DNA of 64,000 nucleotides, from assembly GCF_055900595.2 (NCBI RefSeq), contig NZ_CM148325.1, one strand, 5' to 3'. The position numbers and the translations under genes were made by a program. Shown piece after piece: positions 14,187 through 29,801 of this stretch (the stretch's first letter is position 1; each line of letters starts with the position of its first letter). The notes beneath the pieces were generated by a model. It did not search any database and was not told where the DNA came from. It saw only the letters and a program-made list of their open reading frames with translations.

Positions 14187-14774
14187 TCAGTTAACTGAAT
14201 CGATCCATTGCACACTGTCGGCGGTGAGCGTAAAGGGAGTAGGGGTGCAGATCGCCAGACTTAAATTTTCAAGCTGACAATGGCTGACTGACAGCGAGGA
14301 CTGATAGGTGCTGTCTACGCTGACGATTTGCCAGGCGCTGCCGCCACGTTGTTTAACGATAGCTTCTTTGCGTGTCCAGATGCGCCAGAACATTTCCAGT
14401 TGCTGATCTGGATGCACGGCGTCCATCTCGGCATGTTCTCCGAGGCTGAACACCGCGTTCGCCAGCCAGCGCCAGTTGGCACGCGGGCGAATCACTTCGA
14501 TATCGCAGCCGACTTCGCCCTCATCGCTCAACAGTAGGGCAATATCGTCACCGCTATGGCTTAAGTTGAACCATAGCGGCGTTTCCGGCGCGAATGCAGG
14601 TTTGCCTTGTTCGCCATAGATGATCTCAGGTAGCGGGGAAAGCGTGTGTGAAAGCAATGCACGCCCCGCCAGCCAGCGTTCGCGCCGTGGACCTTGCGGT
14701 GCTTTATCGCGTAAAGCCGGTGGCAGTGGAGCTGCGCTTAAGGTCGAAACTTTCCCCAGAACTATCCGATACAT
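14187..14774 (-). CDS. acpT: Sfp-type 4'-phosphopantetheinyl transferase AcpT
   Basis: 195 aa; WTRKEA-type PPTase motif (IWTRKEAIVKQRG). Start ATG 14772..14774 lies 1 nt after the stop of the upstream island KS gene. Confidence 0.9.
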   Translation of the reverse strand: MYRIVLGKVSTLSAAPLPPALRDKAPQGPRRERWLAGRALLSHTLSPLPEIIYGEQGKPAFAPETPLWFNLSHSGDDIALLLSDEGEVGCDIEVIRPRANWRWLANAVFSLGEHAEMDAVHPDQQLEMFWRIWTRKEAIVKQRGGSAWQIVSVDSTYQSSLSVSHCQLENLSLAICTPTPFTLTADSVQWIDSVN

Positions 14775-14775
14775 A

Positions 14776-16005
14776 TCAGGGCCAACGTTTTATGATGATG
14801 GATGTATTAATGCCGCCAAAGGCAAAGTTGTTACTCTGCAAAAACTCACAATCAATCTTGCGCGCTTCATGCATGATGTAATCCAGCTCGCCACAGTTAG
14901 GGTCTGGTTTATTCAGGTTTAGCGTAGGCGCAAACCAGCCTTCTCGCATCATTTGCAGACTCATCCAGGCTTCGAGCGCGCCACAGGCACCAAGCGTATG
15001 ACCAAAATAGCTTTTCAGCGAGGAGAGCGGCACATTATCACCGTAAATGGCTGCTGTCGCCAGACTTTCTGCCATATCACCACGATCGGTCGCCGTGCCA
15101 TGCGCTGAAATATAGCCAATATCTTGTGCGCTTAACCCGGCGATTTTCAGCGATTGCTCCATACAATACTGCATGGTTTCTCGCTGTGGTTGGGTGATAT
15201 GCGCGGCGTCGCAGTTAGTGGCAAAGCCGACGATTTCTCCATAAATGGTCGCACCGCGCGCTTTGGCGTGCTCCAGTTCTTCGAGAATCAGCGTGCCTGC
15301 GCCTTCGCCAATCACCAGCCCGTCGCGGTTTTCATCGAACGGTGAAGGGGTGGTTTTCGGCGCGTCATTATGCTGGCTGGTGGCGAAAAGCGTATCAAAT
15401 ACCGCCGCTTCTGAAGGGCATAACTCTTCGGCGCCACCAGCAACCATCACCGTTTGATAACCGTGACGAATGGCTTCCCACGCGTAGCCGATCGCCTGGC
15501 TGCCGGAGGTACAGGCGCTGGAGGTTGGGATCACCCGCCCGCGCAGGCCAAAAAATAGCCCGGTATTAACGGCGGTGGTGTGCGGCATCATCTGCACATA
15601 GGTGGTGCCAGTGATGTTATTGGTGTGCTTTTCAGTCAGCATGGTGGCGAACTCGCTCACCGGACCGGTACTGCCGGTCGATGAACCGTACGCAATGCCC
15701 GTTTCGCCGCTGGTTAATATCGGATCGCCAATCAACCCTGCCTGCTCTAACGCCAGCTCGCTGGCTCGGGTCGACATTTGCGACACGCGGCCCATCGCAC
15801 GGATACGCTTACGGGTGTAGTGCTCCGGTAGCGTAAAATCATCAATCGGCGCGCCAAGCAGGGTATGCAGGCCATCGTAAACCTGCCACTCCGGCATTTT
15901 GCGCACTGCGTTCTCATACGCCAGCAAACGCGCGGAAACGTCCTGCCAGTTTTCACCAAAGGCAGTCACGCCGCCCATTCCTGTAATCACTACGCGACGT
16001 GTCAT
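14776..16005 (-). CDS. apeR: beta-ketoacyl-ACP synthase (APE cluster, ApeR-like)
   Basis: 409 aa; KS active-site Cys in SSACTSG, His motifs HGTATDRGD and GHTLGACG; ATGA overlap with the upstream reductase gene. Confidence 0.85.
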   Translation of the reverse strand: MTRRVVITGMGGVTAFGENWQDVSARLLAYENAVRKMPEWQVYDGLHTLLGAPIDDFTLPEHYTRKRIRAMGRVSQMSTRASELALEQAGLIGDPILTSGETGIAYGSSTGSTGPVSEFATMLTEKHTNNITGTTYVQMMPHTTAVNTGLFFGLRGRVIPTSSACTSGSQAIGYAWEAIRHGYQTVMVAGGAEELCPSEAAVFDTLFATSQHNDAPKTTPSPFDENRDGLVIGEGAGTLILEELEHAKARGATIYGEIVGFATNCDAAHITQPQRETMQYCMEQSLKIAGLSAQDIGYISAHGTATDRGDMAESLATAAIYGDNVPLSSLKSYFGHTLGACGALEAWMSLQMMREGWFAPTLNLNKPDPNCGELDYIMHEARKIDCEFLQSNNFAFGGINTSIIIKRWP

Positions 16006-16733
16006 AACATCCCTCCGTTGATGGAAATAACCTGGCGGGTGACGTAACCCGCAATATCAGACATTAAATAACTGGCAAGCCCGGCAACTTCTTCCGCCTG
16101 GCCCATGCGTTTCATGGGGATCATCGACATTGCCTCTTTCAGAGCGCTCTCTTCCATTTCGATCATCCCGGTATCAATAAGCCCCGGCGCGATGCAATTG
16201 ACGGTGATTTTGCGCTTCGCGAGTTCGATAGCCAGTGCTTTTGTTGCGCCGATAATTCCGGCTTTGGCAGCACTGTAGTTCACCTGGCCGCGATTGCCCA
16301 TTACGCCGGAAACCGAGGACAGCGTGATGATGCGTCCGCCCTGGCGTGCGCCGATCATCGGCATAATGCACGGCTGAATGACGTTGTAGAAACTGTCGAG
16401 GTTGGTGTGGATCACCGCATCCCAGTCGTCATCGCTTAAAGCCGGAAAAGCGGCATCGCGGGCGATCCCGGCGTTACTAACCACGCCGTACCAGGCACCG
16501 TGTTGCGCGATCTCGTGCTCCAGCACTTCCCGACACTGTTCGCGGTTTGCGACGTCGAAACTGAGCAAACGCCCGTTACCACCGTTGGCGACAATGGCAT
16601 TCAGCGTTTCCTGAGCGCCTGCGGCGTCACGGTGATAGTGAACGCCAATGTTAAAGCCGTCTGCCGCCAGTTGGCAGGCGATGGCGCGACCAATGCCTTT
16701 GCTGGCACCAGTAACCAGAACTGAACGACTCAT
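16002..16733 (-). CDS. apeQ: 3-oxoacyl-ACP reductase, SDR family (ApeQ-like)
   Basis: 243 aa; TGASKGIGRAIA dinucleotide-binding motif and YSAAK catalytic motif. Confidence 0.85.
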   Translation of the reverse strand: MSRSVLVTGASKGIGRAIACQLAADGFNIGVHYHRDAAGAQETLNAIVANGGNGRLLSFDVANREQCREVLEHEIAQHGAWYGVVSNAGIARDAAFPALSDDDWDAVIHTNLDSFYNVIQPCIMPMIGARQGGRIITLSSVSGVMGNRGQVNYSAAKAGIIGATKALAIELAKRKITVNCIAPGLIDTGMIEMEESALKEAMSMIPMKRMGQAEEVAGLASYLMSDIAGYVTRQVISINGGML

Positions 16734-17197
16734 CAGGACGCTCCTTGTTGAAACAGGGTGGTAAGTTCTTCCGCAGTCGGCTGGAAGGTGTTAATGCGGC
16801 CCGTTGCCTCGCCGTCGTTGATGCTGCACTCAAAACTGCCGAAGCGTTCATCTTGCATCAGCAGTTTGACGGTAATGGTCAGCGTCTGGCCTGCGGGCAG
16901 AATGCCAGCGGCGCAAAGCAATTCACGCGCGCCCAGTACCATCCCTAACTCAATACTGTTTTTGCCCTGCTGGTGGCGATGCCAGCCAGACCAGACGCCG
17001 ACGGTTTGCGCCATCAGTTCAAGGGCAAACCAGCCAGGGAGATTGCCGTCCGGGTCGAGAAACGGTGCCAGTACACCACTGGGCGAAACCGTCACGCGGC
17101 ACACGGCGCTGTCATCGCTGACGCTCACCACTTCTTCCAGCAGCAACATGGGCGCATCGTGGGGCAGATAAGCGCCGGGTGATAAATAGTGGCTCAC
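16733..17197 (-). CDS. apeP: hot-dog fold dehydratase subunit (ApeP-like)
   Basis: 154 aa; GTG start at 17197 overlapping the stop of the upstream KS gene; call rests on size and cluster position. Confidence 0.65.
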   Translation of the reverse strand: MSHYLSPGAYLPHDAPMLLLEEVVSVSDDSAVCRVTVSPSGVLAPFLDPDGNLPGWFALELMAQTVGVWSGWHRHQQGKNSIELGMVLGARELLCAAGILPAGQTLTITVKLLMQDERFGSFECSINDGEATGRINTFQPTAEELTTLFQQGAS

Positions 17198-18363
17198 GAA
17201 ACCCTCCCGAGCAGAATGCTGGCGTTATTGCCGCCAAAGGCGAAAGAATTGGACAGGATCACCGGACGTGCCAGCGGCTGTGGTTTTTCGATAATGCCGC
17301 ACGGTGGCAGCGTGGGATCGCGTGGCGACAGGCTGAAGTCCTGAGCGGGCAGCGGTAAATCACGCTCTAAGATCAACGTGCTAATTGCCGCCTCGGTAAT
17401 GCCCGCCGCGCCCAGCGTGTGTCCGGTCAAATGTTTGGTGGAGCTGCACGGTACGCGTTCGCCAAACAGGGCGTTAACCACCATTGATTCAATCTGGTCG
17501 TTGAGTTGTGTGGCGGTGCCGTGCAGGTTGATATAGCCCACCTCATCCGGCGTAAGCTGCGCATCGTTCAGCGCCTGGTTAATAGCGCGGATCGCCCCTT
17601 CGCCCTGCGGATGCGGGGCCGAAATATGATAAGCGTCGCTTGATTCACCAACGCCCAGTAACGCGATGGGCTGCGGTTCACGGGTCAGCAGCATTAGCCC
17701 CGCGCCTTCGCCAATGGTGATGCCCGCACGGTCACGACCGAACGGCTGACATAAGGTGGGCGACAGCGATTCGAGGCTGTGAAAACCGTTAATCGGCATC
17801 CGGCTCAGAGTGTCTGCGCCACCCACAATGGCGGCATCGACCAGCCCCGCTTCGATAAGCCTGCGCCCGCTGATCATCGCTCTGGCGCTGGAAGAGCAGG
17901 CGGTTGAAAGAGTATATGCCGGGCCGTCGAGCGCCAGCCAGTGGCTGAGAAAACGCGACGGATCGCCGAGTTCTTGTTGTGCATAGTGCCATGTGGTGCT
18001 TGGCTGCCCGTGGGTGCGCAGGTTAACGTGCGTGTCGCCTTCATGCAGGCCGGAGGTGCTGGTGCCAAGCACAATCGCGATGCGCTCGCGGCCATATTTT
18101 GCGATGGCGTCATCAACCTGCAGCTGGATCTGCGCCAGCGCCGCCAGCAGGATCTGATTGTTGCGCGAGCGGTGCGCAGCGAATTTTTCCGGGATAAGCG
18201 GAAGCTCGCCATCCACGCCAGCCAGGACCGCCTGCGGATGCCCCTGCAACCAGCCTGCGCGTGGGCGCATTCCGGGAGCAACACCGCGAGTCAGGTTGGC
18301 TGCGATCTCATCAAGATTATTTCCCAGGGCGTTGATCATGCCAACGGCGGAAATATAAATCAT
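17194..18363 (-). CDS. apeO: beta-ketoacyl-ACP synthase (ApeO-like)
   Basis: Active-site Cys in LSTACSSSA, His motifs LHGTATQ and GHTLGAAG. Start is either GTG 18372 (track) or ATG 18363. Confidence 0.8.
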   Translation of the reverse strand: MIYISAVGMINALGNNLDEIAANLTRGVAPGMRPRAGWLQGHPQAVLAGVDGELPLIPEKFAAHRSRNNQILLAALAQIQLQVDDAIAKYGRERIAIVLGTSTSGLHEGDTHVNLRTHGQPSTTWHYAQQELGDPSRFLSHWLALDGPAYTLSTACSSSARAMISGRRLIEAGLVDAAIVGGADTLSRMPINGFHSLESLSPTLCQPFGRDRAGITIGEGAGLMLLTREPQPIALLGVGESSDAYHISAPHPQGEGAIRAINQALNDAQLTPDEVGYINLHGTATQLNDQIESMVVNALFGERVPCSSTKHLTGHTLGAAGITEAAISTLILERDLPLPAQDFSLSPRDPTLPPCGIIEKPQPLARPVILSNSFAFGGNNASILLGRVS

Positions 18364-18364
18364 A

Positions 18365-18949
18365 TTAGTCACCTAAGTATTGAATGGTGATGTGGTATTT
18401 AAAGACATGCTGCTCAATGCTGATTGGCACGCGTTTTCCTTTGCGATTCAAATAGGTGATTTCCGTGACCAGTTTGCCGCTGGCGTTACGCAGTTCGCGT
18501 TTGTCACCGTTGTCACGAAGTGTCCATCCTGCGGGAAGTTGCGGTTGCCAGGCGCTAATCGGCCAGTGGCTGAGCATTACGTCAGCCAGCACCTGACTTG
18601 CTGGCGGCAACTGTGGGACGACGATGGATTGCTCGGCGCGTAGCCCTTGCGCATCGTAGGTCACCAGAAACAGACGAATGCCGACTGATGACAGTCCGGC
18701 AAGGGTGATTTTCTGGTCGTCGGCATTAAGCATCACCAACAGCGACTGGGTTTTGCCGTTGAAGCTGCCAGTCAACAGTTGTTGGGAATTGACGGCGGGT
18801 GAAATCCCCGGCGCAGGCAGCGTGATGCGTGTGCCAGGTTGCAGCCACGCCTGCGGGCGGCCTTCCTGTTCCGGTTGCGAGTGGCTACAGCCGGTGAGGA
18901 TAAGCGTAGCGGTCAGGGCGAGCGCCCGCCAGAAGGTGGGTTTGATCAT
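18365..18949 (-). CDS. apeN: DUF3261-like outer-membrane lipoprotein (ApeN-like)
   Basis: 194 aa; signal peptide with lipobox LTGC; ATGA overlap with the MMPL gene stop. Confidence 0.7.
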   Translation of the reverse strand: MIKPTFWRALALTATLILTGCSHSQPEQEGRPQAWLQPGTRITLPAPGISPAVNSQQLLTGSFNGKTQSLLVMLNADDQKITLAGLSSVGIRLFLVTYDAQGLRAEQSIVVPQLPPASQVLADVMLSHWPISAWQPQLPAGWTLRDNGDKRELRNASGKLVTEITYLNRKGKRVPISIEQHVFKYHITIQYLGD

Positions 18950-21261
18950 TTTTTTGTTCTCTTTTTATCGGGCATAGCCAGCGGCGAAAGCAGGAAGGCG
19001 GTGAAAATACCGCTCACCAGCACAATGCCAAAACTGCTGATGGCCTGAGTGGCGCTGAATACCAGCATTCCCAGCGTCAGCAAGGTGGTGAGCATTGCCA
19101 GCGTGATCGCCAGTAGGGAAGTTAACGGTGTACCGCGCGGATTACTGAAAAACAGCGTGTAGTTGATGCCGATGCCAAGCACCAGCACCAGCGCCAGCAG
19201 CGAAAAGAGATTCACCGCCTGCCCGCTCATCGCCAGCACTGCCAGACCGCAGCCCAGCGAAAGCACCGAAGGCACCAGGCTGATAAGCCCTTTGCGCCAG
19301 CCAAGGCGGGCCACTGCGCCGCAGGCAATCACTGCCAGCGCCACCAGCAACAAACCGGTTAAGACGTGGCGGTAAAGTGCGAACAATTCATCAAAAGTGT
19401 TTTTGCGATCAACCCAGGCAATGCCCTGGTAATAGCTGGCTGTTTCCTGCAACAACGCGCTACTTTTAACCCCTTCAACCGGCACCAGTACGCCGCTTGC
19501 GCCGTTTTCCAGCGTCAGCCACAGCAGACGCCAGCCTTCACTGGCGGGGCTTGCCAGCCATTCATCGACCTTCACTGGCATGGCGTTGAGATCTGGTTTC
19601 ACCGCCGTCAGCCCGGCATTTTGCAGCGCTTTTGTTACCGTCGGGGCAGACGTTTTCAGCAGATGTAAATCTTCCTCCTGCCGCACCAGGGAGTTCAGCG
19701 GAATAGTGCGGTAGTTGCTGATAAGACCGTCTTTTTTCGCTTTCTCCAGCGAGGCGGTAAATGTCTCCAGCCGCCGCAATGTTTGCTGTGGCGAATCGCC
19801 GTAAACCACAAACCATTTTTGATCGACGCTTTGTCCGGTCAGGGCGGTAATGGCTTTTTCCTGCGCCAGAATATGCTGCGGCAGCGCCTGTAACTGCGAG
19901 ATATCGTCATCGACGCGCAGCATTGACATCCCCGCCAGCGAAAACAGCGCCAGCGCGACGGGCAGACCCCGCGACAGTTTTTTATTGCGCCGCCACGCCG
20001 CCAGCCAGCGCAGCATCAGCGCCATCGCCGGAACCGGACGCACCGGCAGGCCACGGCACAGCCACGGATGCCAGAACAGAACGGTCAGACAGGAGGCGCT
20101 CAACCCGACGGCGGCAAAAATCGCCATCTGGCGAATGCCGGGGAAGGGGGCGAGCATCATAATCAGATACGCCGCCACGGTGGTGAGCAGCGCCAGTAGC
20201 AAGGCATTGCGCACTTTCGCCAGGCTTTGCCACGGCGAAACGTCATTGCCGTGCACCATCCGTTCAGTGAGGTAATAGAGCGTGTAGTCAGCGGAAATGC
20301 CGATAACGCTCATGCTCATCACCAGCGTCATCAGGTGTAATTCACCGAAAATCAACAAGGTGGCGACCGTTCCCGCCAGCGCGCCAATGCCGATGGAAAT
20401 CACGCAAAGCAGCAACGGGCGTAAAGAGCGGAACACCGCCACAATCAGTAATATCACCCCCAGCAGCGTTGCCACGCCCAGGGTTGAGATATCCTGCTTC
20501 GCCTGTTGACTGGCGTAATCGCTGTAAAATACCGTGCCGCGCGAGAGCAACTGCGCCTGCGGGTAACGCGTTTTCAGATCCTTTTCCAGCGTATTCAGGG
20601 TGGTGATGAGCTGGTGGGTTTGCTGCATATCAAACGACGATCCCGCCAGTTCTCCGTGTAGCAGATACCAGTAGTTGCCCTGGGGATCCTGCGTCACCAG
20701 CCAGCCGTCCATCAGTCGTAAACGCTGACCGTTTTTCGCCATCGCCAGCTGCGAGCCGCGCATTAACATCAGCGGATCGTTTTGCAGCTCCTTGCCGCTT
20801 ACCCCGGAGAACGCAGAATAAAGCTGGGAGAGGATCCACTGCGCCTGCGCTTCACCGCCGTTTTGTAGTCGGGCGCGAGTGTCGGGGTCAATCAGGCCGT
20901 TGCGATGCTGCCAGAAAAACGCTCCCCACGCCTGCTGGCTGGCGGCATCCATTGGCCCTTTAACATCGCCGAGCGCAGCGGATTTTTGCAGCAGCGTCAG
21001 CCATTCCTGAGCGACCAGGGGATTAGCCTCTTTACCGGGGCTGACCAGCCACACCAGTTGGCGGTCCAGACGCTGCATAAAGCCGTCATTCAGCGCCGGG
21101 GGAATATCGCCCATCGCCTGTTTGGGTAACATAGCCAGCACGCTACTGTTCAGTCGTGATTGCGGCAGCAGGATCAGCAACGCCGCTGCCATGACCAGGC
21201 AGATGATCCCCCATAACAGCGCCGGGCGTTTACTGGGCGGCAAAACGTTGGCGTTCGTCAT
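18946..21261 (-). CDS. apeM: MMPL/RND-superfamily predicted exporter (ApeM-like)
   Basis: 771 aa with two clusters of TM helices separated by soluble domains. Start 21261 overlaps apeL by 32 nt; an alternative ATG at 21192 is possible. Confidence 0.75.
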   Translation of the reverse strand: MTNANVLPPSKRPALLWGIICLVMAAALLILLPQSRLNSSVLAMLPKQAMGDIPPALNDGFMQRLDRQLVWLVSPGKEANPLVAQEWLTLLQKSAALGDVKGPMDAASQQAWGAFFWQHRNGLIDPDTRARLQNGGEAQAQWILSQLYSAFSGVSGKELQNDPLMLMRGSQLAMAKNGQRLRLMDGWLVTQDPQGNYWYLLHGELAGSSFDMQQTHQLITTLNTLEKDLKTRYPQAQLLSRGTVFYSDYASQQAKQDISTLGVATLLGVILLIVAVFRSLRPLLLCVISIGIGALAGTVATLLIFGELHLMTLVMSMSVIGISADYTLYYLTERMVHGNDVSPWQSLAKVRNALLLALLTTVAAYLIMMLAPFPGIRQMAIFAAVGLSASCLTVLFWHPWLCRGLPVRPVPAMALMLRWLAAWRRNKKLSRGLPVALALFSLAGMSMLRVDDDISQLQALPQHILAQEKAITALTGQSVDQKWFVVYGDSPQQTLRRLETFTASLEKAKKDGLISNYRTIPLNSLVRQEEDLHLLKTSAPTVTKALQNAGLTAVKPDLNAMPVKVDEWLASPASEGWRLLWLTLENGASGVLVPVEGVKSSALLQETASYYQGIAWVDRKNTFDELFALYRHVLTGLLLVALAVIACGAVARLGWRKGLISLVPSVLSLGCGLAVLAMSGQAVNLFSLLALVLVLGIGINYTLFFSNPRGTPLTSLLAITLAMLTTLLTLGMLVFSATQAISSFGIVLVSGIFTAFLLSPLAMPDKKRTKK

Positions 21262-21835
21262 CGGTCAGTTGCGCTGGCGTCAGTTGATGTTGGGTAAGAG
21301 CGATATCGGTGCGATCGCCCTGTTTATCATTAAGCTGAATGCTCTCCAGATAGGTTTGCCCGGCGAGATCGATGGTATTGAAAATTTTATCCAGCGGCGT
21401 GGTGGTCGGCGTCAGGCGCAGCGTCCAGCGGCCTTCGCCTTTGTCAGCAAATTCGACGCGGAAGTTTTGTTCCAGCACTTTGCGATCGGCCTGGAACAGC
21501 GCGCGCAGCAGGTGGTTAAACTGGAACATCTGCGGGTTATTTTCTGCCGTGATGATTTGTGGCGGCTGACCGTTGATCACCTGCACCATGCGTTTATCGT
21601 CCAGTAATAGCTGCATGGGGAACGGTGAGGTTTGATCCCACAACAGCCCCTGGTCGCGGGCGATCAACATCTGCCCCTGCGATCGCAGCGGTTGCGGCAG
21701 ATCTTTAATCGTCCGGGTTTGATCGAAATGGGCGCGGATCACCGGCTGTTCGGTAAAGCGTTGCTGAAGATCGTCCAGGGTCAGGGCGCTCACAAACGGG
21801 CTAATCAGCAGCGCCAGCAGCGGTAAAAATTTCAT
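21230..21835 (-). CDS. apeL: LolA-like outer-membrane lipoprotein carrier protein (ApeL-like)
   Basis: 201 aa; cleavable signal peptide (MKFLPLLALLISPFVSA); LolA-like size. Confidence 0.7.
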   Translation of the reverse strand: MKFLPLLALLISPFVSALTLDDLQQRFTEQPVIRAHFDQTRTIKDLPQPLRSQGQMLIARDQGLLWDQTSPFPMQLLLDDKRMVQVINGQPPQIITAENNPQMFQFNHLLRALFQADRKVLEQNFRVEFADKGEGRWTLRLTPTTTPLDKIFNTIDLAGQTYLESIQLNDKQGDRTDIALTQHQLTPAQLTDDERQRFAAQ

Positions 21836-22254
21836 GGTTTGACTCCCATGCGTTCAAACAGAATATCGGGGCTGACAAAGCACAGTTCGCGGCTTTGCTC
21901 GTCGACCGCGACCTGAATGGTGTATCCGGTGGTGGCGCGTTTGCCCGTTTCGGCATCGAAAATCTGATAGCCAATTCGCAGGCGGTTTTCGAACTCTTCG
22001 ATATGCGCACGCACGCGGATGCGTTGCTCAAAGGTGAGGGCGTGGCGATATTTCACCCGCGCATCGACCACTGGCCACAAATAACCCGACTCTTTCATCT
22101 GCCGATAGCCGTAATTGAACTGGTTGAGCAGCGCCTCGCGGGCCACTTCAAAGTAGCGAAAATAGTTACCGTGCCAGGCCACGCCCATCATATCGACGTC
22201 GTGAAATGGAATGATCAGCTCGACTTCAGCGGTAAATCGGGGATCGTTAAGCAC
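21832..22254 (-). CDS. apeK: 4HBT/YbgC-type hot-dog thioesterase (ApeK-like)
   Basis: 140 aa; HDVDMMGVAWHGNYFRYFE thioesterase motif; GTG start. Confidence 0.75.
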   Translation of the reverse strand: MLNDPRFTAEVELIIPFHDVDMMGVAWHGNYFRYFEVAREALLNQFNYGYRQMKESGYLWPVVDARVKYRHALTFEQRIRVRAHIEEFENRLRIGYQIFDAETGKRATTGYTIQVAVDEQSRELCFVSPDILFERMGVKP

Positions 22255-22257
22255 CCT

Positions 22258-23934
22258 TTACTCCTTGTCCTGGACTTCCGGCAGTTGCCAGAAATCGAAA
22301 AAATTAAACCAGTCGAGGGGCGACTGGAGCGCGTGATGTTCCAGACGCGCGGCGTAATGATCGATAGCGTTTTGCAGCGCCTGCTGGCGTTCGCCACGCG
22401 GCAACAGCAGCGGGTCGGCAAAGGTTTCGCAGTTAATATGCAGCTTGCCGTGCTGGCGCAGGGCGAAAATCAGATTCACCGGGCAGCGCAAAATAGACGC
22501 GAGAATAAACGGCCCCTGTGGGAAGGGCGCAGGCTGGCCCATAAACGAACTCCAGCAGACGCGCCAGTCGCCGCCGCGTTGCGGGTTGATGGCGATGCGG
22601 TCACCAACAATCGCCACCCATTCGCCGTTATCCAGCTTCTCTTTTAGCAGGATGGCGGTGTCCGGGCCGATATCCGTCACCGGCATCAGGTTAATGCCTG
22701 CCTGAGGAGCCATCTCCTGCATTATCTGTTTAAAGCGTTGGGCGTTTTCGCTAAACACCAGCGCGTTAATGGTTTTGTAGCCCTGAATTTTTGCCAGCGC
22801 CCGGCACACTTCCACATCGCCAAGATGCGAGGCCAGCAGCAATTTGCCGCGCGGATCGCTGACGTTAAGTGCCGCTTCTGCGCCTGGTGCAAACAGCACA
22901 TCACGCCCGAGTTGCAGCTCGCCGCGCCAACTGGCGATTTTGTCGAGCATGGCGTTGCCGAAACGTAGAAAGTGCTGATAGCTGTTGAGTTTTGCTGCCT
23001 GTGGTTGATGCTGGCGCACACGGGCGAGCCAGTCTTGCGACGCTTTGCGCGCCCGGCTGGCGGTGAGCCAGTAGACGCCCACCACCGGATAAAGCAGCGC
23101 GGTAAACGCCGTTCTTCCCAGCAGGCGCCAGACCAGCAGCATCAGGCGCATTCCCCATAATCCTTTCACTTCGCTCTGCCGCGCCCAGTGGCTGGAAGAG
23201 TGGCGCATCAGCAGCGAAGGAATACGCGGCAACATGCCGAAAAACAGGCGCGTGTGCATGAGCGAGATGCGGACGTTATCTTTCAGGGCATCAAAGTGCG
23301 AAAGCCCGTCCAGCGGATAGGTGACGCGGGTCGGCACGAAATAGCTGGTGTTTCCCTGCCAGTAGAGGCGCACCATCACTTCGGTGTCGAAATCCATCCG
23401 CTTGCCGATGGTGGCGTGTTTTGCCAGTTGCAGCGTTGGCGCAACCGGATAAACGCGAAAGCCGCACATGCTGTCTTTCAGTTGCAGGGAGAGCGTTTCG
23501 ACCCATACCCAGATGTGGGTGACCCAGCGCCCGTACAGCCGTGAGCGGGGGATGGAGTCATCGTAAATTGGCTGGCCGGAGATCAGTGCCGCAGGGTGTT
23601 GTTCAGCGAGTGCCAGCAGTTTGGGGATATCTTCAATCGCGTGCTGACCGTCGGCATCTACCTGTACCGCATGGCTGAACCCCGCGTCTGCCGCTGCCTG
23701 TAAGCCGCGCATTACCGCCGCGCCTTTGCCTGCGTTTTCTGCCAGGCGAATTAATGTCACGCCAGGCTGTTCGGCAACCAGATTATCCAGTTGCTGTTGC
23801 GTGGCGGCATCGCTGCCGTCATCCACCACAATACAGGGCAGATTAAATGGCTTAAGACGCGCCAGCACGCCCGGCATCATTGCGCCGTGGTTGTAGCAGG
23901 GGATCAACACGCAGGGAGAAAAGTTTACCGACAT
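22258..23934 (-). CDS. apeJ: family-2 glycosyltransferase fused to a C-terminal acyltransferase-like domain (ApeJ-like)
   Basis: 558 aa; N-terminal GT-A fold signature (CYNHG...VVDDGSDA), longer C-terminal domain. Confidence 0.7.
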   Translation of the reverse strand: MSVNFSPCVLIPCYNHGAMMPGVLARLKPFNLPCIVVDDGSDAATQQQLDNLVAEQPGVTLIRLAENAGKGAAVMRGLQAAADAGFSHAVQVDADGQHAIEDIPKLLALAEQHPAALISGQPIYDDSIPRSRLYGRWVTHIWVWVETLSLQLKDSMCGFRVYPVAPTLQLAKHATIGKRMDFDTEVMVRLYWQGNTSYFVPTRVTYPLDGLSHFDALKDNVRISLMHTRLFFGMLPRIPSLLMRHSSSHWARQSEVKGLWGMRLMLLVWRLLGRTAFTALLYPVVGVYWLTASRARKASQDWLARVRQHQPQAAKLNSYQHFLRFGNAMLDKIASWRGELQLGRDVLFAPGAEAALNVSDPRGKLLLASHLGDVEVCRALAKIQGYKTINALVFSENAQRFKQIMQEMAPQAGINLMPVTDIGPDTAILLKEKLDNGEWVAIVGDRIAINPQRGGDWRVCWSSFMGQPAPFPQGPFILASILRCPVNLIFALRQHGKLHINCETFADPLLLPRGERQQALQNAIDHYAARLEHHALQSPLDWFNFFDFWQLPEVQDKE

Positions 23935-24278
23935 AGGCGGATCTTCCCGCTACTGGCGGTGTGGCGGGCGTCACCGTCGTGACGCTGATAACTAAAGCTC
24001 AGAATCTGGCGTTCTTCCTGCCAGCTAAGCGTGAGTGTGACGCGGTTATCCGGCAGCAATGGAGCCTGGAATTTGATGTTCTGAATGGAGTGAAAACGCC
24101 AACCGGGCGCGAGCAGGGCAAGCGCGTAACTCATCGCCCAGTCGATTTGCGCCACGCCAGGGAGTAATGGTTGTACGGCAAAATGACCGCGAAACCAGAA
24201 CAGATCTGCCCTGAGATGCAAAACAATCTCAAGGTGATTCACTTGTGCCTGATGGCGCTCGATTTCATGGGGCTTCAT
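23925..24278 (-). CDS. apeI: FabZ-like 3-hydroxyacyl-ACP dehydratase (ApeI-like)
   Basis: Hot-dog dehydratase motif FRGHFAVQPLLPGV. ATG at 24278 preferred over the track GTG at 24308, which would overlap apeH by 44 nt. Confidence 0.75.
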   Translation of the reverse strand: MKPHEIERHQAQVNHLEIVLHLRADLFWFRGHFAVQPLLPGVAQIDWAMSYALALLAPGWRFHSIQNIKFQAPLLPDNRVTLTLSWQEERQILSFSYQRHDGDARHTASSGKIRLCR

Positions 24279-25626
24279 GAAATAACTCCTGTAATTGCGC
24301 ATAGACACGCTTGTTCATACTGTTTACTGGCATTTCATCAATAACGCGCCAGTAACGCGGAATAGCAACTGGCTCCAGCGTCGGGCGCAGTAATCGCCGC
24401 CAGGCCATTTCCTGGCTGTGCCCGCCGCCGTTTTGCCATTGCAGGCGAGCTTCGTCATCCAGCACCAGCAAAACGCCAATACTCTGACGTCCGCCGCGCG
24501 TAACGGGAACTGCCGCCGCCTCGCGAATACCGTCCAGCGCCAGCAGACGTTGTTCTACTTCCTGGAGTGAAATACGTTTTTCTTCAATCTTAACGATGCG
24601 CCCACGACGCCCCATCAGATGGAACTGACCGTCCTGGCTAAACTGCAAGAGATCATCGAGTAACAGGCCGTTATCTTCCGCTATCAGCGGTGAAAAGAGG
24701 CGAAATGCTTCACCTTCGGCCTGGAACTGCACACCTGGGAAGGGTAGCCAGCGGCGTTGCTCTTGTTCGCGGTAACGCCAGGCGATGACGCCGGTTTCCG
24801 TGCTGCCGTAGATTTCATCAGGCCAGACGCGCAGCCAGCTCGCGGTATATTGTACGTCCTGCCACGGCAGCTCACCGCCAGCAGAGAGAAGCACCTGAAC
24901 GGGCGGCGGAGAAAGCTGGGTATCCAGCCGTTTCAAAAATGCCGGGCTGCTGATGAAGATATAGCGATGCTGGTGACTCAATGCGGCAAACTGTTCGACA
25001 TACCAGAGCATGGCGGCGTGCAGCGGTAATCCCAGCGCCATTGGCAGGAAAACGCGAAAAGTCAGGCCGTACAAATGCTGCGGCAATACGGAACCGACGA
25101 CACGACATCCGGCAAGACGTGCGCCTAATCGTTCAGCCAGCAGTTCTGCTTCACGGTCCAGCAAATGAACAGGTTTAATTACCCGCTTTGGCTGCCCCGT
25201 AGAACCGGAGGTAAACAGCTCGATATAAGCGTCTGGCGCTATAGCGGCAAAGGTGAATGATTGTGTCGCGACTTGTGGGGAGCTTGCTACCAACAGCAAT
25301 GAACCTTGCCAGTTAAGTTCGCTGTCGCTAAGCACACCATCGAACAGTTCACGTTGCTCGTTAAGCTGGATGACGCGGTTATGCCCCGGAAGCACCGGTG
25401 TTTTTCCGGCGTGTAGCGTGGCGAGCAGGGCAACGATAAACAGATAGCAGTCCTCAAAGCACAGCGCCCAGCGTTCACCTGGTTGTTGCTGTAAACGGCA
25501 GATAAGTTGCGAGACATCGTGACGCAAATCGCCCAGCGTCCAGGTGCTTTCGTCCAGCCACGCAATGGGCGTGTCATCAGGGCGTGGCGCAGTCAGCCAG
25601 CGTGCAAGCGGTAAGGTCTGCTTCAT
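24265..25626 (-). CDS. apeH: AMP-dependent acyl/aryl ligase (adenylate-forming; ApeH-like)
   Basis: Adenylation P-loop FTSGSTGQPKRV. ATG at 25624..25626 forms an ATGA overlap with the apeG stop; the track start 25665 is an extension. Confidence 0.8.
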   Translation of the reverse strand: MKQTLPLARWLTAPRPDDTPIAWLDESTWTLGDLRHDVSQLICRLQQQPGERWALCFEDCYLFIVALLATLHAGKTPVLPGHNRVIQLNEQRELFDGVLSDSELNWQGSLLLVASSPQVATQSFTFAAIAPDAYIELFTSGSTGQPKRVIKPVHLLDREAELLAERLGARLAGCRVVGSVLPQHLYGLTFRVFLPMALGLPLHAAMLWYVEQFAALSHQHRYIFISSPAFLKRLDTQLSPPPVQVLLSAGGELPWQDVQYTASWLRVWPDEIYGSTETGVIAWRYREQEQRRWLPFPGVQFQAEGEAFRLFSPLIAEDNGLLLDDLLQFSQDGQFHLMGRRGRIVKIEEKRISLQEVEQRLLALDGIREAAAVPVTRGGRQSIGVLLVLDDEARLQWQNGGGHSQEMAWRRLLRPTLEPVAIPRYWRVIDEMPVNSMNKRVYAQLQELFHEAP

Positions 25627-26204
25627 GAGCGATCTCTTTTCATCACCTGACGGCGCACCAGCCATTCACCAGCCATTAACGTCCCCATCAACAAATAAGC
25701 AATCATGCCGTTCCAGGCAGTCCATAACGACATATCGCCATGCAGCGCGGTAAAGAGGGCAATTCCGCCGTTGATGATGAAAAAGCCGCACCAGATTTGC
25801 GTGACGTGGCGGGTATAGCGCACGCCCTTTTCCGGGAGGTCTGGCTCCTGCAAACGCGCCAGCCGCTCAACAATTGGCATTGCCGACCACAGCGAACCGC
25901 CAAAAACCGCCAGCATTACCGCGTTAACCACTACCGGGTAAAACAGCAGTAGCTGGTGCGTTTTCAACAGAAAGCTGGCGACACACAAGGCGATACCCAC
26001 GACAGCGACGATTTGTGTGACGGCTTGTAGCGGCTCGGCCTGGCAACGAGTCTGGCGCAGGCGCAATAAAAGCAGCAGCGCCATCAGCGGCAACAGCCAG
26101 TGCAGGCCGTTATGTGCCAAACCAAGCCAAATCACAAACGGCCAGGCGAGCAGTAATAATCCGGTCAGCAGTTTAATAATCGGTAGCGAGCGAATGCCCG
26201 ACAT
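25623..26204 (-). CDS. apeG: polytopic inner-membrane protein of unknown function (ApeG-like)
   Basis: 193 aa, about five hydrophobic helices; ATG 26202..26204. Confidence 0.65.
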   Translation of the reverse strand: MSGIRSLPIIKLLTGLLLLAWPFVIWLGLAHNGLHWLLPLMALLLLLRLRQTRCQAEPLQAVTQIVAVVGIALCVASFLLKTHQLLLFYPVVVNAVMLAVFGGSLWSAMPIVERLARLQEPDLPEKGVRYTRHVTQIWCGFFIINGGIALFTALHGDMSLWTAWNGMIAYLLMGTLMAGEWLVRRQVMKRDRS

Positions 26205-26208
26205 CAGA

Positions 26209-26460
26209 TCAGGCTTCTTGTAGCAGGCGTTCTACGGCCTCTACGACATCCTGGACTGTACGCACTGCTTTAAACTCTTCCGGCTTGATTTTCTTACCGG
26301 TTTTCTTTTGCAGATGCACAATCATGTCAACGGCGTCGATGCTGTCCAGTTCCAGATCTTCGTACAGGCGCGCTTCAGGTTTGATGTCCTGCGGATCGAT
26401 TTCAAACAGCTTAACCAGCAGAGCTGAGACTTCCTGATAGACGGTTTGTTGTTCTGTCAT
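26209..26460 (-). CDS. apeF: acyl carrier protein (ApeF-like)
   Basis: Pantetheine attachment motif LELDSIDAVDM. ATG at 26460 (MTEQQ...) or the track GTG at 26475. Confidence 0.8.
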   Translation of the reverse strand: MTEQQTVYQEVSALLVKLFEIDPQDIKPEARLYEDLELDSIDAVDMIVHLQKKTGKKIKPEEFKAVRTVQDVVEAVERLLQEA

Positions 26461-26471
26461 GATGGCTTTCC

Positions 26472-26729
26472 TCACGCACGTTGTGCAGCAATAAAAGAGG
26501 CCAGAGTGGCGACAGAGAAAAAGTGCTGACGCATCTCTTCACTTTCCGCAGAAAGTACAACGCCATATTCATTTTTTACTGCCAGCCCCAGTTCCAGGGC
26601 ATCGATGGAATCCAGCCCTAAACCGTCGCCGAACAGCGGCGCATCGGTCTCGATATCATCAGGAGTCAACTCGTCCAGATTGAGGGTGCTGATGATGAGG
26701 TTTTTAATTTCCAGATAAAGCGCTTGCAT
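26472..26729 (-). CDS. apeE: acyl carrier protein (ApeE-like)
   Basis: 85 aa; LGLDSIDALEL motif; ATG 26727..26729. Confidence 0.8.
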   Translation of the reverse strand: MQALYLEIKNLIISTLNLDELTPDDIETDAPLFGDGLGLDSIDALELGLAVKNEYGVVLSAESEEMRQHFFSVATLASFIAAQRA

Positions 26730-27525
26730 TATTTATTCCTGAGAGAGGTAAACAACCTTGTTGTAATTGAAGCAAAAGATGCCGGTTTAACTGCCTTGCT
26801 GCCAGCGCCGGTTCTTGTGAAGTTGCAACGTAAAATTTATTGATTTCAACCCGATCATGGACTTCAACCGTAAAAAACGGCCTGGCAGGTGGAACGTCAT
26901 ACCATTTACTTTGTTTATCCAGCAGATGCTCGCTACAGCCGATCGTCACGATGCGTAAATCGCTGGCACAGCGCACGGCAATATTCGCCGCCCCGCGCTG
27001 CAGCGTCATTTTTTCACCGGGCTTCGTTCGCGTGCCTTCGGGGAAAATCAAGATAGTGTCGCCCTGTGCCAGTCGCTGTTGGCAGCGGGGTAACAGGGTT
27101 TCAGCTTCGCTGTTGATTAAATAATCTGCCGCCCGCACAACGCCGCCAAGAAAAGGATTTTTTAACAGCGCGCTTTTCACCAGGCAGTCAGTTTCTGGCA
27201 TGACTGACGCCAGCAGTACGTAATCGATAAGCGTGGGATGATTAGCTACGACGAGGCAACCGCGTTCCTGACGTAAAATTTCAGCGCCATCAATACGATA
27301 ATCCAGCACGCCAAGCCCTTTCGCGACAGTTAAAAACAGGCGAAAACTGGCGGCAATGCTGCGACGCGCCAAACGACGGCGGCGGGAAGTATCCCACACC
27401 AAAACTAACAATATGTTAAACCACACGACAGAAAGCAGCAGGCCGCCGAGACCAAACAGGGCAAAACACAACCCGGTCATAACCAGTCGCCATGTCCATT
27501 CCAGGCGTGACATCAGCTTACTCAT
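26704..27525 (-). CDS. apeD: PlsC-like lysophospholipid acyltransferase (ApeD-like)
   Basis: 273 aa; N-terminal TM anchor; HX4D acyltransferase motif NHPTLID; ATGA overlap with the apeC stop. Confidence 0.75.
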   Translation of the reverse strand: MSKLMSRLEWTWRLVMTGLCFALFGLGGLLLSVVWFNILLVLVWDTSRRRRLARRSIAASFRLFLTVAKGLGVLDYRIDGAEILRQERGCLVVANHPTLIDYVLLASVMPETDCLVKSALLKNPFLGGVVRAADYLINSEAETLLPRCQQRLAQGDTILIFPEGTRTKPGEKMTLQRGAANIAVRCASDLRIVTIGCSEHLLDKQSKWYDVPPARPFFTVEVHDRVEINKFYVATSQEPALAARQLNRHLLLQLQQGCLPLSGINNASALSGN

Positions 27526-28244
27526 CTACGGCTCCAGCGCCACTGTACGCGCTCACCAGGAAGTGAAAAAGCATCTGAATTTTGTAAATAGTGCTGTAAA
27601 AACAACATGCTTTGCGGCAGTGTTGTTTCATTGCCCGCAATGGCTGGCTGTGTTTCACATTGCCACTCATCGCCAGCTTCAATCACCAGCGCAACAGCAT
27701 ATGGCCAGGTCGGCATTTCTGCTGGGAGCTGCGGATGATAGAACTCAGGTAGAAAGCCATCAAAATCGACCATCAACACGCGCTGGTATCCCGCTTGTAA
27801 CAGGCTAAGCACTTCACACAAACCTTGCTGGAAAGTGTCGCGACCAGCCGAAAGCGATGAGGAAACGATCGGTTGTTTGGCCGCAATGGTCAGGTTACCC
27901 ACGGAAGAGTTGTGTACGGAGAGCGCGAAGTCCGTCGGAGAGAGCGCCTGTTCGGTTGCCAGTGCATGAACAATGCGGTAATTGCGCTCCAGCTCGCCAT
28001 GACGACTGGTATACAAAACGGCGTCTGGCTGATGGTGGCGTAGCATTGCCAGACCGCACTCCACGGCCAGTTTGCTGCCAGAACTGAGACGGCGGGCGGT
28101 CATCATTGGCAGTTCACTTAATTTTGCCAACGGTGCGGCAGGGTCAACCGCCCACGGCTGGCGCGACCATGCTTGCCATTGCTGGGCTTCGCTAAGTCCA
28201 GGCGCCAGTGCCTTCCAGTCGGTAATATTTAATGTAAATTTCAT
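27522..28244 (-). CDS. apeC: truncated KS-like protein lacking the active-site Cys motif; chain-length-factor-like partner (ApeC-like)
   Basis: About 240 aa with no TACSS-type motif. ATG at 28244 (MKFTLNI...) preferred over the track TTG at 28268. Confidence 0.6.
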   Translation of the reverse strand: MKFTLNITDWKALAPGLSEAQQWQAWSRQPWAVDPAAPLAKLSELPMMTARRLSSGSKLAVECGLAMLRHHQPDAVLYTSRHGELERNYRIVHALATEQALSPTDFALSVHNSSVGNLTIAAKQPIVSSSLSAGRDTFQQGLCEVLSLLQAGYQRVLMVDFDGFLPEFYHPQLPAEMPTWPYAVALVIEAGDEWQCETQPAIAGNETTLPQSMLFLQHYLQNSDAFSLPGERVQWRWSRR

Positions 28245-28284
28245 CAACGCGCGCCCGCGGTAAACCAAAATTATTAAGTGACGA

Positions 28285-29343
28285 TTATTTCTTTTGGCAT
28301 ATCAATAATGTATGCCCAACGCCTAAATTATCGTGGCGCTCTGCTACCTGAAATCCTGCTTTATTCAGATAGTCGTAAAATTTCTCTGCGCTATAGAAAC
28401 GGCTGTTACCGTTTGCCATGCAGGTAAAATAAAGTGAGGACGCGTTCAGGCTAAATGATGCTGCTTCAAACCGCTGCGCATCCCAGAACAACTCCATGAT
28501 GCAAACTTTTGCGCCAGGCTTCATTACGCTGGCGATTTTGCTGAGTATGCTAATTATTTGTTCGGGTGAAAAACAGTCTAAAAATTGGCTCATCCACCAG
28601 ATATCAGCCTCGCCCGGTAATGGGGCATCGCTTAGCATATCCACCGCATGGAAATCTATGCGATCAGAAAAACCTGCATTCGCGATATTTTCTTTCGCTA
28701 GTACGATTTGTTGTGGCAGATCTAATAACGTCACGGCGATGTTTTCATTGTATTTGCAGCAACGCAAAGCCCACTTACCCGTATTGCCGCCTACATCGTA
28801 CAATGTTGTGGGGTTGTTGGCGAATACATAAGGCAGTGCGGCGTTAAATGCGCCATCTGAATAGTAATGATCAAACGCAAACCAGCTTTCACGAGCGGCA
28901 TCTGGTAATTGTGAAAGTGCGGGATATATCGTCGACCAGTCGCCAAATACTTTTAACCCGGACGGTTTTCCTTCATTGAGTGAATCGGCGAGGAAGAAGA
29001 GCCCCTGATAGCAGACATCCTGGGTGAAATCCATATTCACGCGAGTCATAGTGTCATGCAGGAGGTAATGACCGATTTTCGCCAGGTAATACATTCCCTC
29101 TTTACAGGTAATAATTCGCCCGCTTAAGCCCATATCTAACAGAACGCTGGCCGCATATTCGTTGATATGGCTATGTTCGGTGATATCAGCCAGCGTTGCG
29201 CCATGTTTGCCTTGCCGATCCAGATATGAAAGTACACCCGCATTACGTAGGCAGAGAGCTGTTTGAAAAAGCATGGGGGCAAAGGCAATGCGTTGAGCTT
29301 CGGTAATCGCATCCAGTGCGCTAAGAGAATCCTGTTCGTACAT
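28285..29343 (-). CDS. apeB: SAM-dependent methyltransferase, probably O-methyltransferase (ApeB-like)
   Basis: SAM-binding motif LYDVGGNTG; ATG at 29343 (MYEQ...) or the track GTG at 29352. Confidence 0.75.
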   Translation of the reverse strand: MYEQDSLSALDAITEAQRIAFAPMLFQTALCLRNAGVLSYLDRQGKHGATLADITEHSHINEYAASVLLDMGLSGRIITCKEGMYYLAKIGHYLLHDTMTRVNMDFTQDVCYQGLFFLADSLNEGKPSGLKVFGDWSTIYPALSQLPDAARESWFAFDHYYSDGAFNAALPYVFANNPTTLYDVGGNTGKWALRCCKYNENIAVTLLDLPQQIVLAKENIANAGFSDRIDFHAVDMLSDAPLPGEADIWWMSQFLDCFSPEQIISILSKIASVMKPGAKVCIMELFWDAQRFEAASFSLNASSLYFTCMANGNSRFYSAEKFYDYLNKAGFQVAERHDNLGVGHTLLICQKK

Positions 29344-29411
29344 GTTGGGCACAACCTGTTAAGAGGGAATTAAATTATTATCGGACCGAAGCGGCCCGAC
29401 TTTAGGGGAAA

Positions 29412-29801
29412 TTACAAATCTGCGCCAGCCGACAAATTCAGTTGAATATCTTTGTCGAGATTGCGGACCCAGCGATTATAGTTTTTATGAATTTGTCCGC
29501 CTGATGCTTGCAGGTTCTGACTATTTTCATAATTGATATCGTAGCTGGATGCCGTGTAGTTAATGCGAATTTCGGCTGAATGATCGCGTGACTGTTGACG
29601 TGCTTTAATTACGCCTTGTCCGGCTTCGGACATAATCCATTTGCGTTCAACGCCAGCTTTCAGAATCGCTTTTTTCACTTGTTCCTGGGTATGACCAGCG
29701 CTGACGGTTGAGTGAACCTGATCAATTGGCGCAGTACGCGCGCAACCCGCTAAAGCACCCACAACAGCAATAGCCGCAAACCATTTCATGTAATGTCTCA
29801 T
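29412..29801 (-). CDS. small lipoprotein of unknown function at the island edge
   Basis: 129 aa; signal peptide and lipobox (AVVGALAGC); start ATG at 29801 or 29789; candidate hairpin terminator just downstream. Confidence 0.55.
   Translation of the reverse strand: MRHYMKWFAAIAVVGALAGCARTAPIDQVHSTVSAGHTQEQVKKAILKAGVERKWIMSEAGQGVIKARQQSRDHSAEIRINYTASSYDINYENSQNLQASGGQIHKNYNRWVRNLDKDIQLNLSAGADL

Follow-up and report, generated by a model that had tools for sequence, protein, structure and literature searches.

The aryl polyene island at the acpT/yhhT site of an Escherichia coli chromosome and its ligase, dehydratase and methyltransferase genes

Biosynthetic gene clusters (BGCs) for aryl polyenes (APEs) have been described in Escherichia coli CFT073, Xenorhabdus doucetiae and Acinetobacter baumannii, for which gene content, gene order and gene functions have all been published (PMC8253772, PMC8041823 and PMC12624758). 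In E. coli CFT073, apeA is the first gene of the BGC and encodes a lipoprotein, ApeB is an S-adenosylmethionine (SAM) methyltransferase of the aromatic head group, ApeH is an acyl-acyl carrier protein (ACP) synthetase predicted to activate 4-hydroxybenzoate, and ApeI and ApeP are dehydratases; deletion of apeB still yields pigmented, immature APE acids (Johnston et al., 2021, PMC8253772). In X. doucetiae, ApeH adenylates 4-hydroxybenzoate and loads it on an ACP, preferably ApeE, without a coenzyme A (CoA) intermediate (Grammbitter, 2019, as reported in PMC8253772). A. baumannii ApeH loads p-hydroxybenzoate or p-coumarate and likewise prefers ApeE as acceptor (PMC12624758); in this organism ApeI is fused to the C-terminus of ApeH and forms with ApeP a heterodimer that has a single active site, and an enoyl-ACP reductase is absent from APE clusters, hence the polyene (PMC8041823). 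Here we analyzed a 64,000-nucleotide (nt) stretch of contig NZ_CM148325.1 (RefSeq assembly GCF_055900595.2; hereafter the window), which is E. coli chromosome and carries a complete 18-gene APE island, apeA-apeR, on the minus strand at 14776-29789, flanked by acpT and yhhT. The adenylating ligase, dehydratase and methyltransferase genes that had been singled out in a preliminary description of this DNA are the published ApeH, ApeI and ApeB of the E. coli APE pigment cluster, and are already known and ordinary. It is very probable that the region makes up the 5′ half of the apeA-apeR island, located on the chromosome at the acpT/yhhT site, and works by the APE mechanism set out below.

Several lines of evidence lead us to this reading. 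E. coli chromosomes that match the DNA at 100% identity carry the same 18 genes and acpT in the annotation of the NCBI Prokaryotic Genome Annotation Pipeline (PGAP); Pfam and NCBIfam assign every core enzyme; and the island is fully syntenic with the CFT073/Nissle-type islands, with a Citrobacter island at the same chromosomal site and with the reconstituted X. doucetiae cluster. In addition, ApeI and ApeP match the two chains of PDB entry 6QSR, with the His in ApeI and the Glu in ApeP, ApeQ is a FabG2 equivalog and no enoyl reductase was found, and the function of ApeH orthologues has been reported (PMC8253772, PMC12624758) and their ligase motifs are conserved. The pathway model that the preliminary description had put forward, in which an aryl starter is loaded, extended by cycles of ketosynthase (KS), ketoreductase and dehydratase, and methylated on the ring, agrees with the one published for this cluster family (PMC8253772, PMC12624758, PMC8041823).

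Eight complete E. coli chromosomes match the 5.5 kb around the flagged genes at 100% identity. This segment is present in some form in 824 of 5426 complete E. coli genomes, in every case on the chromosome, and the exact allele of the window in 8 of the 5426. One of the matching sequences, NZ_CM128605, has 8 mismatches to the window over 39.5 kb; its PGAP annotation gives nikR-nikA, acpT (14187-14774), a dense array of 18 genes (14776-29789) and yhhT, all on the minus strand of the window, and in this exact sequence PGAP already names ApeI, ApeP, FabG2, the chain length factor (CLF) and AcpT. Islands linked to acpT, as in the window and in O157:H7, occur in about 566 of the 5426 genomes versus about 260 for the CFT073 type. 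In Citrobacter amalonaticus this set of 18 genes is flanked by yhhT and a phosphopantetheinyl transferase (PPTase) gene and lies downstream of zntA, tusA, yhhQ and dcrB; the acpT-linked position is therefore common to both genera. We take the acpT-yhhT island to be the one designated "O-island 138" in E. coli O157:H7. This island was first described as fatty-acid-biosynthesis-like, and the O157 cluster has been called an APE BGC by antiSMASH (PMC9205054). The two carrier proteins of the O157:H7 island are AcpT substrates (De Lay and Cronan, 2006, as cited in PMC8253772), and the island in the window appears to be the same one. On the same strand, acpT follows apeR after 1 nt and looks co-transcribed with the island; no PPTase gene adjoins the CFT073-type (Nissle-type) island in its pathogenicity island. 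The GC content changes within the island, from 0.46-0.54 in apeA-apeF to 0.54-0.60 in apeG-apeR, and in the Nissle-type island the lower-GC portion reaches through apeH and apeI.

The gene content is that of an enterobacterial-type APE BGC (Table 1). A KS/CLF pair (ApeO/ApeC) and a separate initiating KS (ApeR) were recognized by Pfam, PGAP and NCBIfam. A dedicated ligase, ApeH, is encoded beside tandem ACPs (26209-26729) in the same order as in the CFT073/Nissle-type, Citrobacter and X. doucetiae islands, and an ApeI-like and an ApeP-like dehydratase form a pair. A FabG2-type ketoreductase is present without an enoyl reductase, and the attachment and export set comprises a lysophospholipid acyltransferase, a family 2 glycosyltransferase, a thioesterase, and LolA-like, MMPL, DUF3261 and COG4648 proteins; ApeG, the last of these, had no significant Pfam match. 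Pfam and NCBIfam profile scans of all 19 genes (18 ape genes and acpT) and of the 10 largest antisense open reading frames (ORFs) found no enoyl reductase family, which bears out the earlier statement that the island encodes none. Neighboring island genes abut, overlap or lie at most 68 nt apart, leaving no unassigned coding space, and there is therefore no room for an additional gene. ApeQ is the sole short-chain dehydrogenase of the island and has the classical TGxxxGIG and S...YxxxK motifs. It was considered as a possible enoyl reductase because of its match to adh_short_C2, which carries an "Enoyl-(ACP) reductase" label; this was rejected, as that family also covers FabG, the YxxxK motif is present and ApeQ exceeds the cutoff of the FabG2 equivalog.

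Loading of 4-hydroxybenzoate on ApeE, the KS/CLF and dehydratase heterocomplexes and the role of AcpT have been demonstrated for orthologues in the literature. In the proposed mechanism, AcpT, encoded beside apeR, would make holo-ApeE, and ApeH would adenylate 4-hydroxybenzoate, which in E. coli comes from chorismate lyase (UbiC), and pass it straight to the phosphopantetheine arm of ApeE with no CoA thioester. ApeR would carry out the first condensation with a malonyl extender, and ApeO:ApeC (KS:CLF) would elongate the chain and set its length. The ketoreductase ApeQ and the dehydratase ApeI:ApeP would complete each cycle, the latter through a single composite active site made of the catalytic His of ApeI (FRGHF) and the Glu of ApeP (ELMAQ). 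With no enoyl reduction, a conjugated polyene would accumulate. ApeB would methylate the aromatic head group, presumably at the ring carbon ortho to the hydroxyl, by analogy with the CFT073 product, and ApeK, D, J, G, L, M, N and A would then carry out pigment release, lipid attachment and export to the outer membrane. For the allele in the window, we infer the substrate specificity, the methylation site and the expression of the island.

The ligase had been recognized by its P-loop, and the assignment to the adenylate-forming enzymes is borne out: the ORF at 24265-25626 matches Pfam AMP-binding and contains the exact motif. All of the motifs looked for in the ANL superfamily are there, namely A3 (consensus TSGSTGxPK; FTSGSTGQPKRV, residues 138-149, window 25180-25215), A5 (consensus YGxTE; IYGSTETG), A8 (consensus GRxxxxxKxxG; GRRGRIVKIEEKRISL) and the lysine of A10 (NSMNKR). 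The best NCBIfam match of ApeH is the 4-coumarate-CoA ligase equivalog TIGR02372, at 83.8 bits versus a cutoff of 334.7; since this is far under the cutoff, ApeH belongs to a separate family. Identity is 66% to the CFT073-type ApeH and, over the full length, 48.9% to that of X. doucetiae, and all three proteins keep the A3 motif, QHLYGLTFR...LPMxLGLP, EIYG(S/C)TETG, VKIEEKRISL and the C-terminal KR. A search of PDB sequences with ApeH returned matches to the C-terminal subdomain only and no structure of an ApeH. Foldseek against the PDB places an AlphaFold2 model of ApeH, built from an alignment of 25 sequences, in the ANL fold, with a probability of 1.0 to MenE, benzoate-CoA ligase and EntE. 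The longest ApeH ORF runs to 25665 (466 amino acids), which adds a 13-codon N-terminal extension, MAGAPSGDEKRSL, at 25627-25665. We rejected this start because stop codons interrupt the extension in the Enterobacter locus and in that of the Nissle type, and because MKQTLPL or MNQTLSL is conserved at 25626 we prefer the PGAP start there (453 amino acids). The extension resembles the one in the X. doucetiae gene call, MAGTPTGKK, a likeness that probably reflects the conserved C-terminus of apeG, which overlaps it.

As had been described, the ligase is directly followed by a dehydratase with an FRGHF motif: apeI is the next gene downstream, and the motif is formed by residues 29-33 of this hotdog-fold protein (window 24180-24194). 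The range of 24265-29343 given for the three enzymes was wrong for the dehydratase, as apeI (23925-24278) lies outside it save for the 14 nt by which it overlaps the 3′ end of apeH. The ATG of apeI at 24278 is preceded by an AGGAG Shine-Dalgarno sequence within the 3′ end of apeH. Given this overlap and the fusion in A. baumannii, the adjacency of ligase and dehydratase is a conserved and sometimes physically fused pairing. The description of the dehydratase as FabZ-like holds for the fold and the His motif but not at the level of the NCBIfam FabZ equivalogs, TIGR01750 and PRK00006 (cutoffs 155 and 113 bits), against which ApeI scored 21.9 and 24.5 bits and ApeP 25.9 and 25.7 bits. ApeI and ApeP match chains A and B of PDB 6QSR, respectively (E = 3.3e-38 and 6e-48). 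ApeI retains the catalytic His (FRGHF), and in an alignment of ApeP with FabZ and FabA the position of this His is Pro or absent and the acidic residue (ALELMAQ) is retained. As ApeI has the His and ApeP has only the acidic residue, the heterodimer can form one complete His/acid site only, in agreement with the single active site given in PMC8041823. ApeI works as a heterodimer with ApeP, not alone.

The third flagged enzyme had been called a SAM-dependent methyltransferase, and ApeB (ORF 28285-29343) is indeed a class I SAM methyltransferase, with Methyltransf_2 (65.3 bits), Methyltransf_12 and Methyltransf_25 above their Pfam cutoffs and SAM motif I (LYDVGGNTG, of which DVGGNTG at 28777-28797). 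It is 94% identical to the CFT073-type ApeB. Its closest NCBIfam family is flexirubin FlxJ (NF053543), matched over the full length at 475.1 bits, below the equivalog cutoff of 560, and the second is BchU, "bacteriochlorophyllide d C-20 methyltransferase"; among solved structures the nearest is 3DP7 (E = 3e-105), followed by SibL. The methyltransferase gene had been thought to open the operon. This was mistaken, as apeA (29412-29789, same strand) precedes apeB by 68 nt and its first position is conserved in the loci of the Nissle type, Citrobacter and Xenorhabdus. The spacer between the two genes (29344-29411, minus strand) has a small hairpin rich in GC, TCGGGCC-GCTTC-GGTCCGA, and after it an AT-rich stretch; a scan did not call it a terminator, and it might act as an attenuator or in mRNA processing or stability. 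When the DNA upstream of apeA and apeB was scanned for promoters, 3 sites were called versus 2.0 expected by chance; the single minus-strand site, at 29995-29967, upstream of apeA, says little by itself.

Some of our observations weigh against the proposed pathway. ApeH scores under every curated NCBIfam cutoff, and 4-hydroxybenzoate as the substrate of this allele would be carried over from CFT073 and X. doucetiae enzymes to which it is 66% and 49% identical. The AlphaFold2 model of ApeH is poor (mean predicted local distance difference test score 66.4, with residues 227-342 under 50), and Foldseek did not discriminate between substrates, as MenE, benzoate-CoA ligase, EntE, acetyl-CoA synthetase and the adenylation domains of nonribosomal peptide synthetases had E-values less than a factor of ten apart, with identities of 14-20%. 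In the literature we found no chemical characterization of the product of an acpT-linked island; the published structure work used the CFT073 island. The Pfam domain matched by ApeB is named "O-methyltransferase", and methylation at a ring carbon rather than at oxygen would follow from the structure of the APE of E. coli (APE_Ec) and from the weak resemblance of ApeB to SibL.

A comparison of the two E. coli island types revealed a mosaic at precisely the flagged ligase and dehydratase genes. The second type is found in pathogenicity islands associated with tRNA-Phe and insertion sequences (IS), in Nissle 1917, NC101 and YSP8-1; from its CFT073-series locus tags, this Nissle type would be the one studied experimentally. 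Between the window and the Nissle type, protein identity is 94-99.6% for 14 genes, 66% for ApeH, 72% for ApeI, 81% for ApeG and 64-66% for ApeA (a range that depends on how the alignment is normalized). Nucleotide identity is 47-80% within approximately 23980-25820 and 92-100% on both sides, with sharp edges, and drops a second time upstream of approximately 29160, with the apeA region (29160-29800) at about 64-69%. The apeH gene has a GC content of 0.56 in the window versus 0.48 in its Nissle-type counterpart. Identity between the two ApeH alleles is 66.6%, versus 76.6% (window) and 71.2% (Nissle type) with the Citrobacter allele, and a protein search placed the nearest relatives outside Escherichia in Citrobacter and Klebsiella, at 73-77%. 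A scan of genome contigs with ApeH peptides returned 3 loci only, too few to trace the origin of the diverged segment. From these sequence comparisons, we read the block comprising the 3′ part of apeG, apeH and apeI as one that was probably replaced by recombination in one lineage. This mosaic segment is the only point that we did not find in the accessible papers.

It could be, though we regard it as improbable, that the block (~23980-25820), whose ApeH and ApeI form one fused protein in Acinetobacter, is an exchangeable "starter module", swapped by recombination between APE islands so that the priming aryl acid changes. If it were true, the widespread acpT-linked island, including that of O157:H7, would make a pigment unlike the characterized CFT073 APE. 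The diverged apeH-apeI segment might give the acpT-linked island another starter, such as a hydroxy- or aminobenzoate or a cinnamate, or another product than that of the CFT073 island. The sharp boundaries of the block fit this explanation, as does the contrast between the identities of ApeH, ApeI and ApeG (66, 72 and 81%) and those of all other proteins save ApeA, and so does the fact that each of the two ApeH alleles is closer to the Citrobacter allele than to the other; there is also latitude in the family, as A. baumannii ApeH takes p-coumarate besides p-hydroxybenzoate (PMC12624758). However, the lowest conservation in the whole cluster is that of ApeH, ApeG and ApeA versus X. doucetiae (~46-52%) and that of ApeG and ApeH versus Citrobacter (78% and 77%), and therefore much of the divergence could be due to fast drift and recombination. 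Furthermore, the motif blocks predicted to line the acyl pocket are near-identical in both alleles, and the methyltransferase and the KS/CLF, which must accept the starter, are 94-98% identical. This explanation is thus unlikely. A changed ApeH substrate is in itself possible but unlikely, since ApeH, ApeG and ApeA are poorly conserved anyway and the motif blocks hardly differ.

Alternatively, ApeB could be not a ring C-methyltransferase but an O-methyltransferase that caps the phenolic hydroxyl, in which case the head group would be a methoxy-aryl one. The name of the Methyltransf_2 domain, "O-methyltransferase domain", suggests as much, and beyond the top two most of the solved relatives of ApeB are O-methyltransferases, such as DnrK. 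Against this, the second-best solved relative is SibL, which we take to be a ring C-methyltransferase, the second-best NCBIfam match is to the C-20 methyltransferase BchU and the best to flexirubin FlxJ, and, as Cimermancic and colleagues are said to have reported in 2014, the head groups of APE_Ec and flexirubin bear a free hydroxyl and ring methyl groups. We therefore consider O-methylation very unlikely. Finally, it is hardly credible that the ligase activates aliphatic acids as a general fatty acyl-CoA or acyl-ACP synthetase and that the island makes a fatty-acid-like lipid and not an APE: orthologues are named "acyl-CoA synthetase" or "AMP-binding protein" by PGAP in many genomes, there are weak NCBIfam matches to long-chain fatty-acid-CoA ligases and Aas, and the original description of the island was along such lines (PMC9205054), but the best NCBIfam match is to a ligase of aryl acids, the gene occupies the apeH position in a fully syntenic APE cluster, ApeH orthologues of two species load 4-hydroxybenzoate (PMC8253772, PMC12624758), and the CFT073-type island, 94-99% identical in 14 of 18 proteins, yields yellow APE pigment (PMC8253772).

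The reading of the region as an APE island of the published kind is thus retained. The studied CFT073 island and the commoner acpT-linked island differ in 4 of 18 genes, including those for ApeH and ApeI, and starter-selection biochemistry therefore transfers from one to the other by orthology and not by near-identity. The acpT-linked island also retains its cognate PPTase gene beside it.

Two further features of the window lie outside the island. At 314-3457 there are two tandem paralogous ORFs of 419 and 540 amino acids, each with a DUF4049 match at 577-582 bits and a weak calcineurin-like phosphoesterase signal, the first also with DUF6860. The GC content of this stretch is 0.34-0.41 versus approximately 0.55 elsewhere in the window, and because of this contrast it is probably a horizontally acquired islet. 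The small RNA RyhB is encoded at 60043-60107 on the plus strand (Rfam RF00057, 83.1 bits versus a gathering score of 55).

Table 1. Genes of the APE island, the adjoining acpT gene and the diverged block (window coordinates).
Feature	Assignment	Coordinates	Strand	Evidence
apeA	Small lipoprotein, first island gene	29412..29789	-	Start MKWFAAIAVVGALAGC, lipobox LAGC; 125 amino acids; PGAP: hypothetical protein
apeB	SAM-dependent methyltransferase, aryl head group	28285..29343	-	Pfam Methyltransf_2 65.3 bits and Dimerisation2-like domain
apeC	Chain length factor, ApeO partner	27522..28244	-	Pfam Ketoacyl-synt_2 225.8 bits; PGAP "beta-ketoacyl synthase chain length factor"
apeD	Lysophospholipid acyltransferase (attachment step)	26704..27525	-	Pfam Acyltransferase 70.7 bits; PGAP name
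apeE	Starter ACP	26472..26729	-	Pfam PP-binding; 80% identical to X. doucetiae ApeE
apeF	Second ACP	26209..26460	-	Pfam PP-binding 50.2 bits; PGAP name
apeG	COG4648 membrane protein	25623..26204	-	PGAP "COG4648 family protein"; 3′ end inside diverged block
apeH	Adenylating ligase, putative aryl-acid:ACP ligase	24265..25626	-	Pfam AMP-binding 50.7 bits (cutoff 29.9); 453 amino acids
apeI	His-bearing subunit of ApeI:ApeP dehydratase	23925..24278	-	Pfam ApeI-like (PF22818) 135.5 bits (cutoff 28.5)
apeJ	Family 2 glycosyltransferase (attachment step)	22258..23934	-	Pfam Glycos_transf_2 74.3 bits
apeK	Hotdog thioesterase	21832..22254	-	Pfam 4HBT_2 61.9 bits
apeL	LolA-like carrier	21230..21835	-	Pfam LolA and LolA_3
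apeM	MMPL/RND transporter	18946..21261	-	Pfam MMPL; PGAP name
apeN	DUF3261 protein	18365..18949	-	Pfam DUF3261 134.6 bits
apeO	Elongating ketosynthase	17194..18363	-	Pfam ketoacyl-synt N- and C-terminal domains
apeP	Glu-bearing dehydratase subunit, ApeI partner	16733..17197	-	Pfam ApeP-like (PF22817) 137.3 bits
apeQ	3-ketoacyl-ACP reductase	16002..16733	-	NCBIfam FabG2 equivalog TIGR01831 475.8 bits (cutoff 338.85)
apeR	Initiating ketosynthase	14776..16005	-	NCBIfam PRK09116 780 bits (cutoff 470); full KS domains (Pfam); role in PMC8253772
acpT	Phosphopantetheinyl transferase activating ApeE and ApeF	14187..14774	-	NCBIfam AcpT equivalog 394 bits (cutoff 174)
Diverged mosaic block	Body of apeI, whole apeH, apeG 3′ end	23980..25820		Nucleotide identity to CFT073/Nissle-type island

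The closest described system is the APE_Ec cluster of E. coli CFT073 and Nissle 1917 (c1204-c1186; PMC8253772), in which the 18 genes of the island in the window recur with order and orientation unchanged, with ApeB-ApeF and ApeJ-ApeR 94-99.6% identical; the yellow APE pigment has been demonstrated for this type only (PMC8253772). The two differ in their site, as the island in the window lies between acpT and yhhT, with acpT directly abutting apeR, unlike the CFT073-type island, which is located in a tRNA-Phe/IS-associated pathogenicity island. The O157:H7 island shares the acpT-yhhT locus, and its apeH is 95.2% identical at the DNA level; relative to it, the window is an allelic variant only.

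The X. doucetiae cluster (Grammbitter et al., 2019), which has been reconstituted in vitro and was retrieved here through the sequence of chain A of PDB 6QSR, shows full synteny with the window over its 18 genes. It uses the same ApeH-to-ApeE starter loading and the same ApeO:C and ApeI:P heterocomplexes, according to PMC8253772. Identity to the window is approximately 82% for ApeQ and ApeR, 80% for ApeE, 56% for ApeI and 48.9% for ApeH, and the cluster adjoins a phage integrase gene whereas the island in the window adjoins acpT. The A. baumannii system (PMC8041823, PMC12624758) is alike in that ApeH loads p-hydroxybenzoate on ApeE, ApeI and ApeP form a single site and there is no enoyl reductase; it differs in that ApeI is fused to ApeH, where the window has separate genes with a 14-nt overlap and a Shine-Dalgarno sequence inside apeH. 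Lastly, ApeI shares with FabZ and FabA the hotdog fold, a His in a GHF context followed by PxxPG, and an acidic residue on the central helix. FabZ and FabA, however, are homodimers with two sites, whereas ApeI:ApeP is a heterodimer with one complete His/acid pair.

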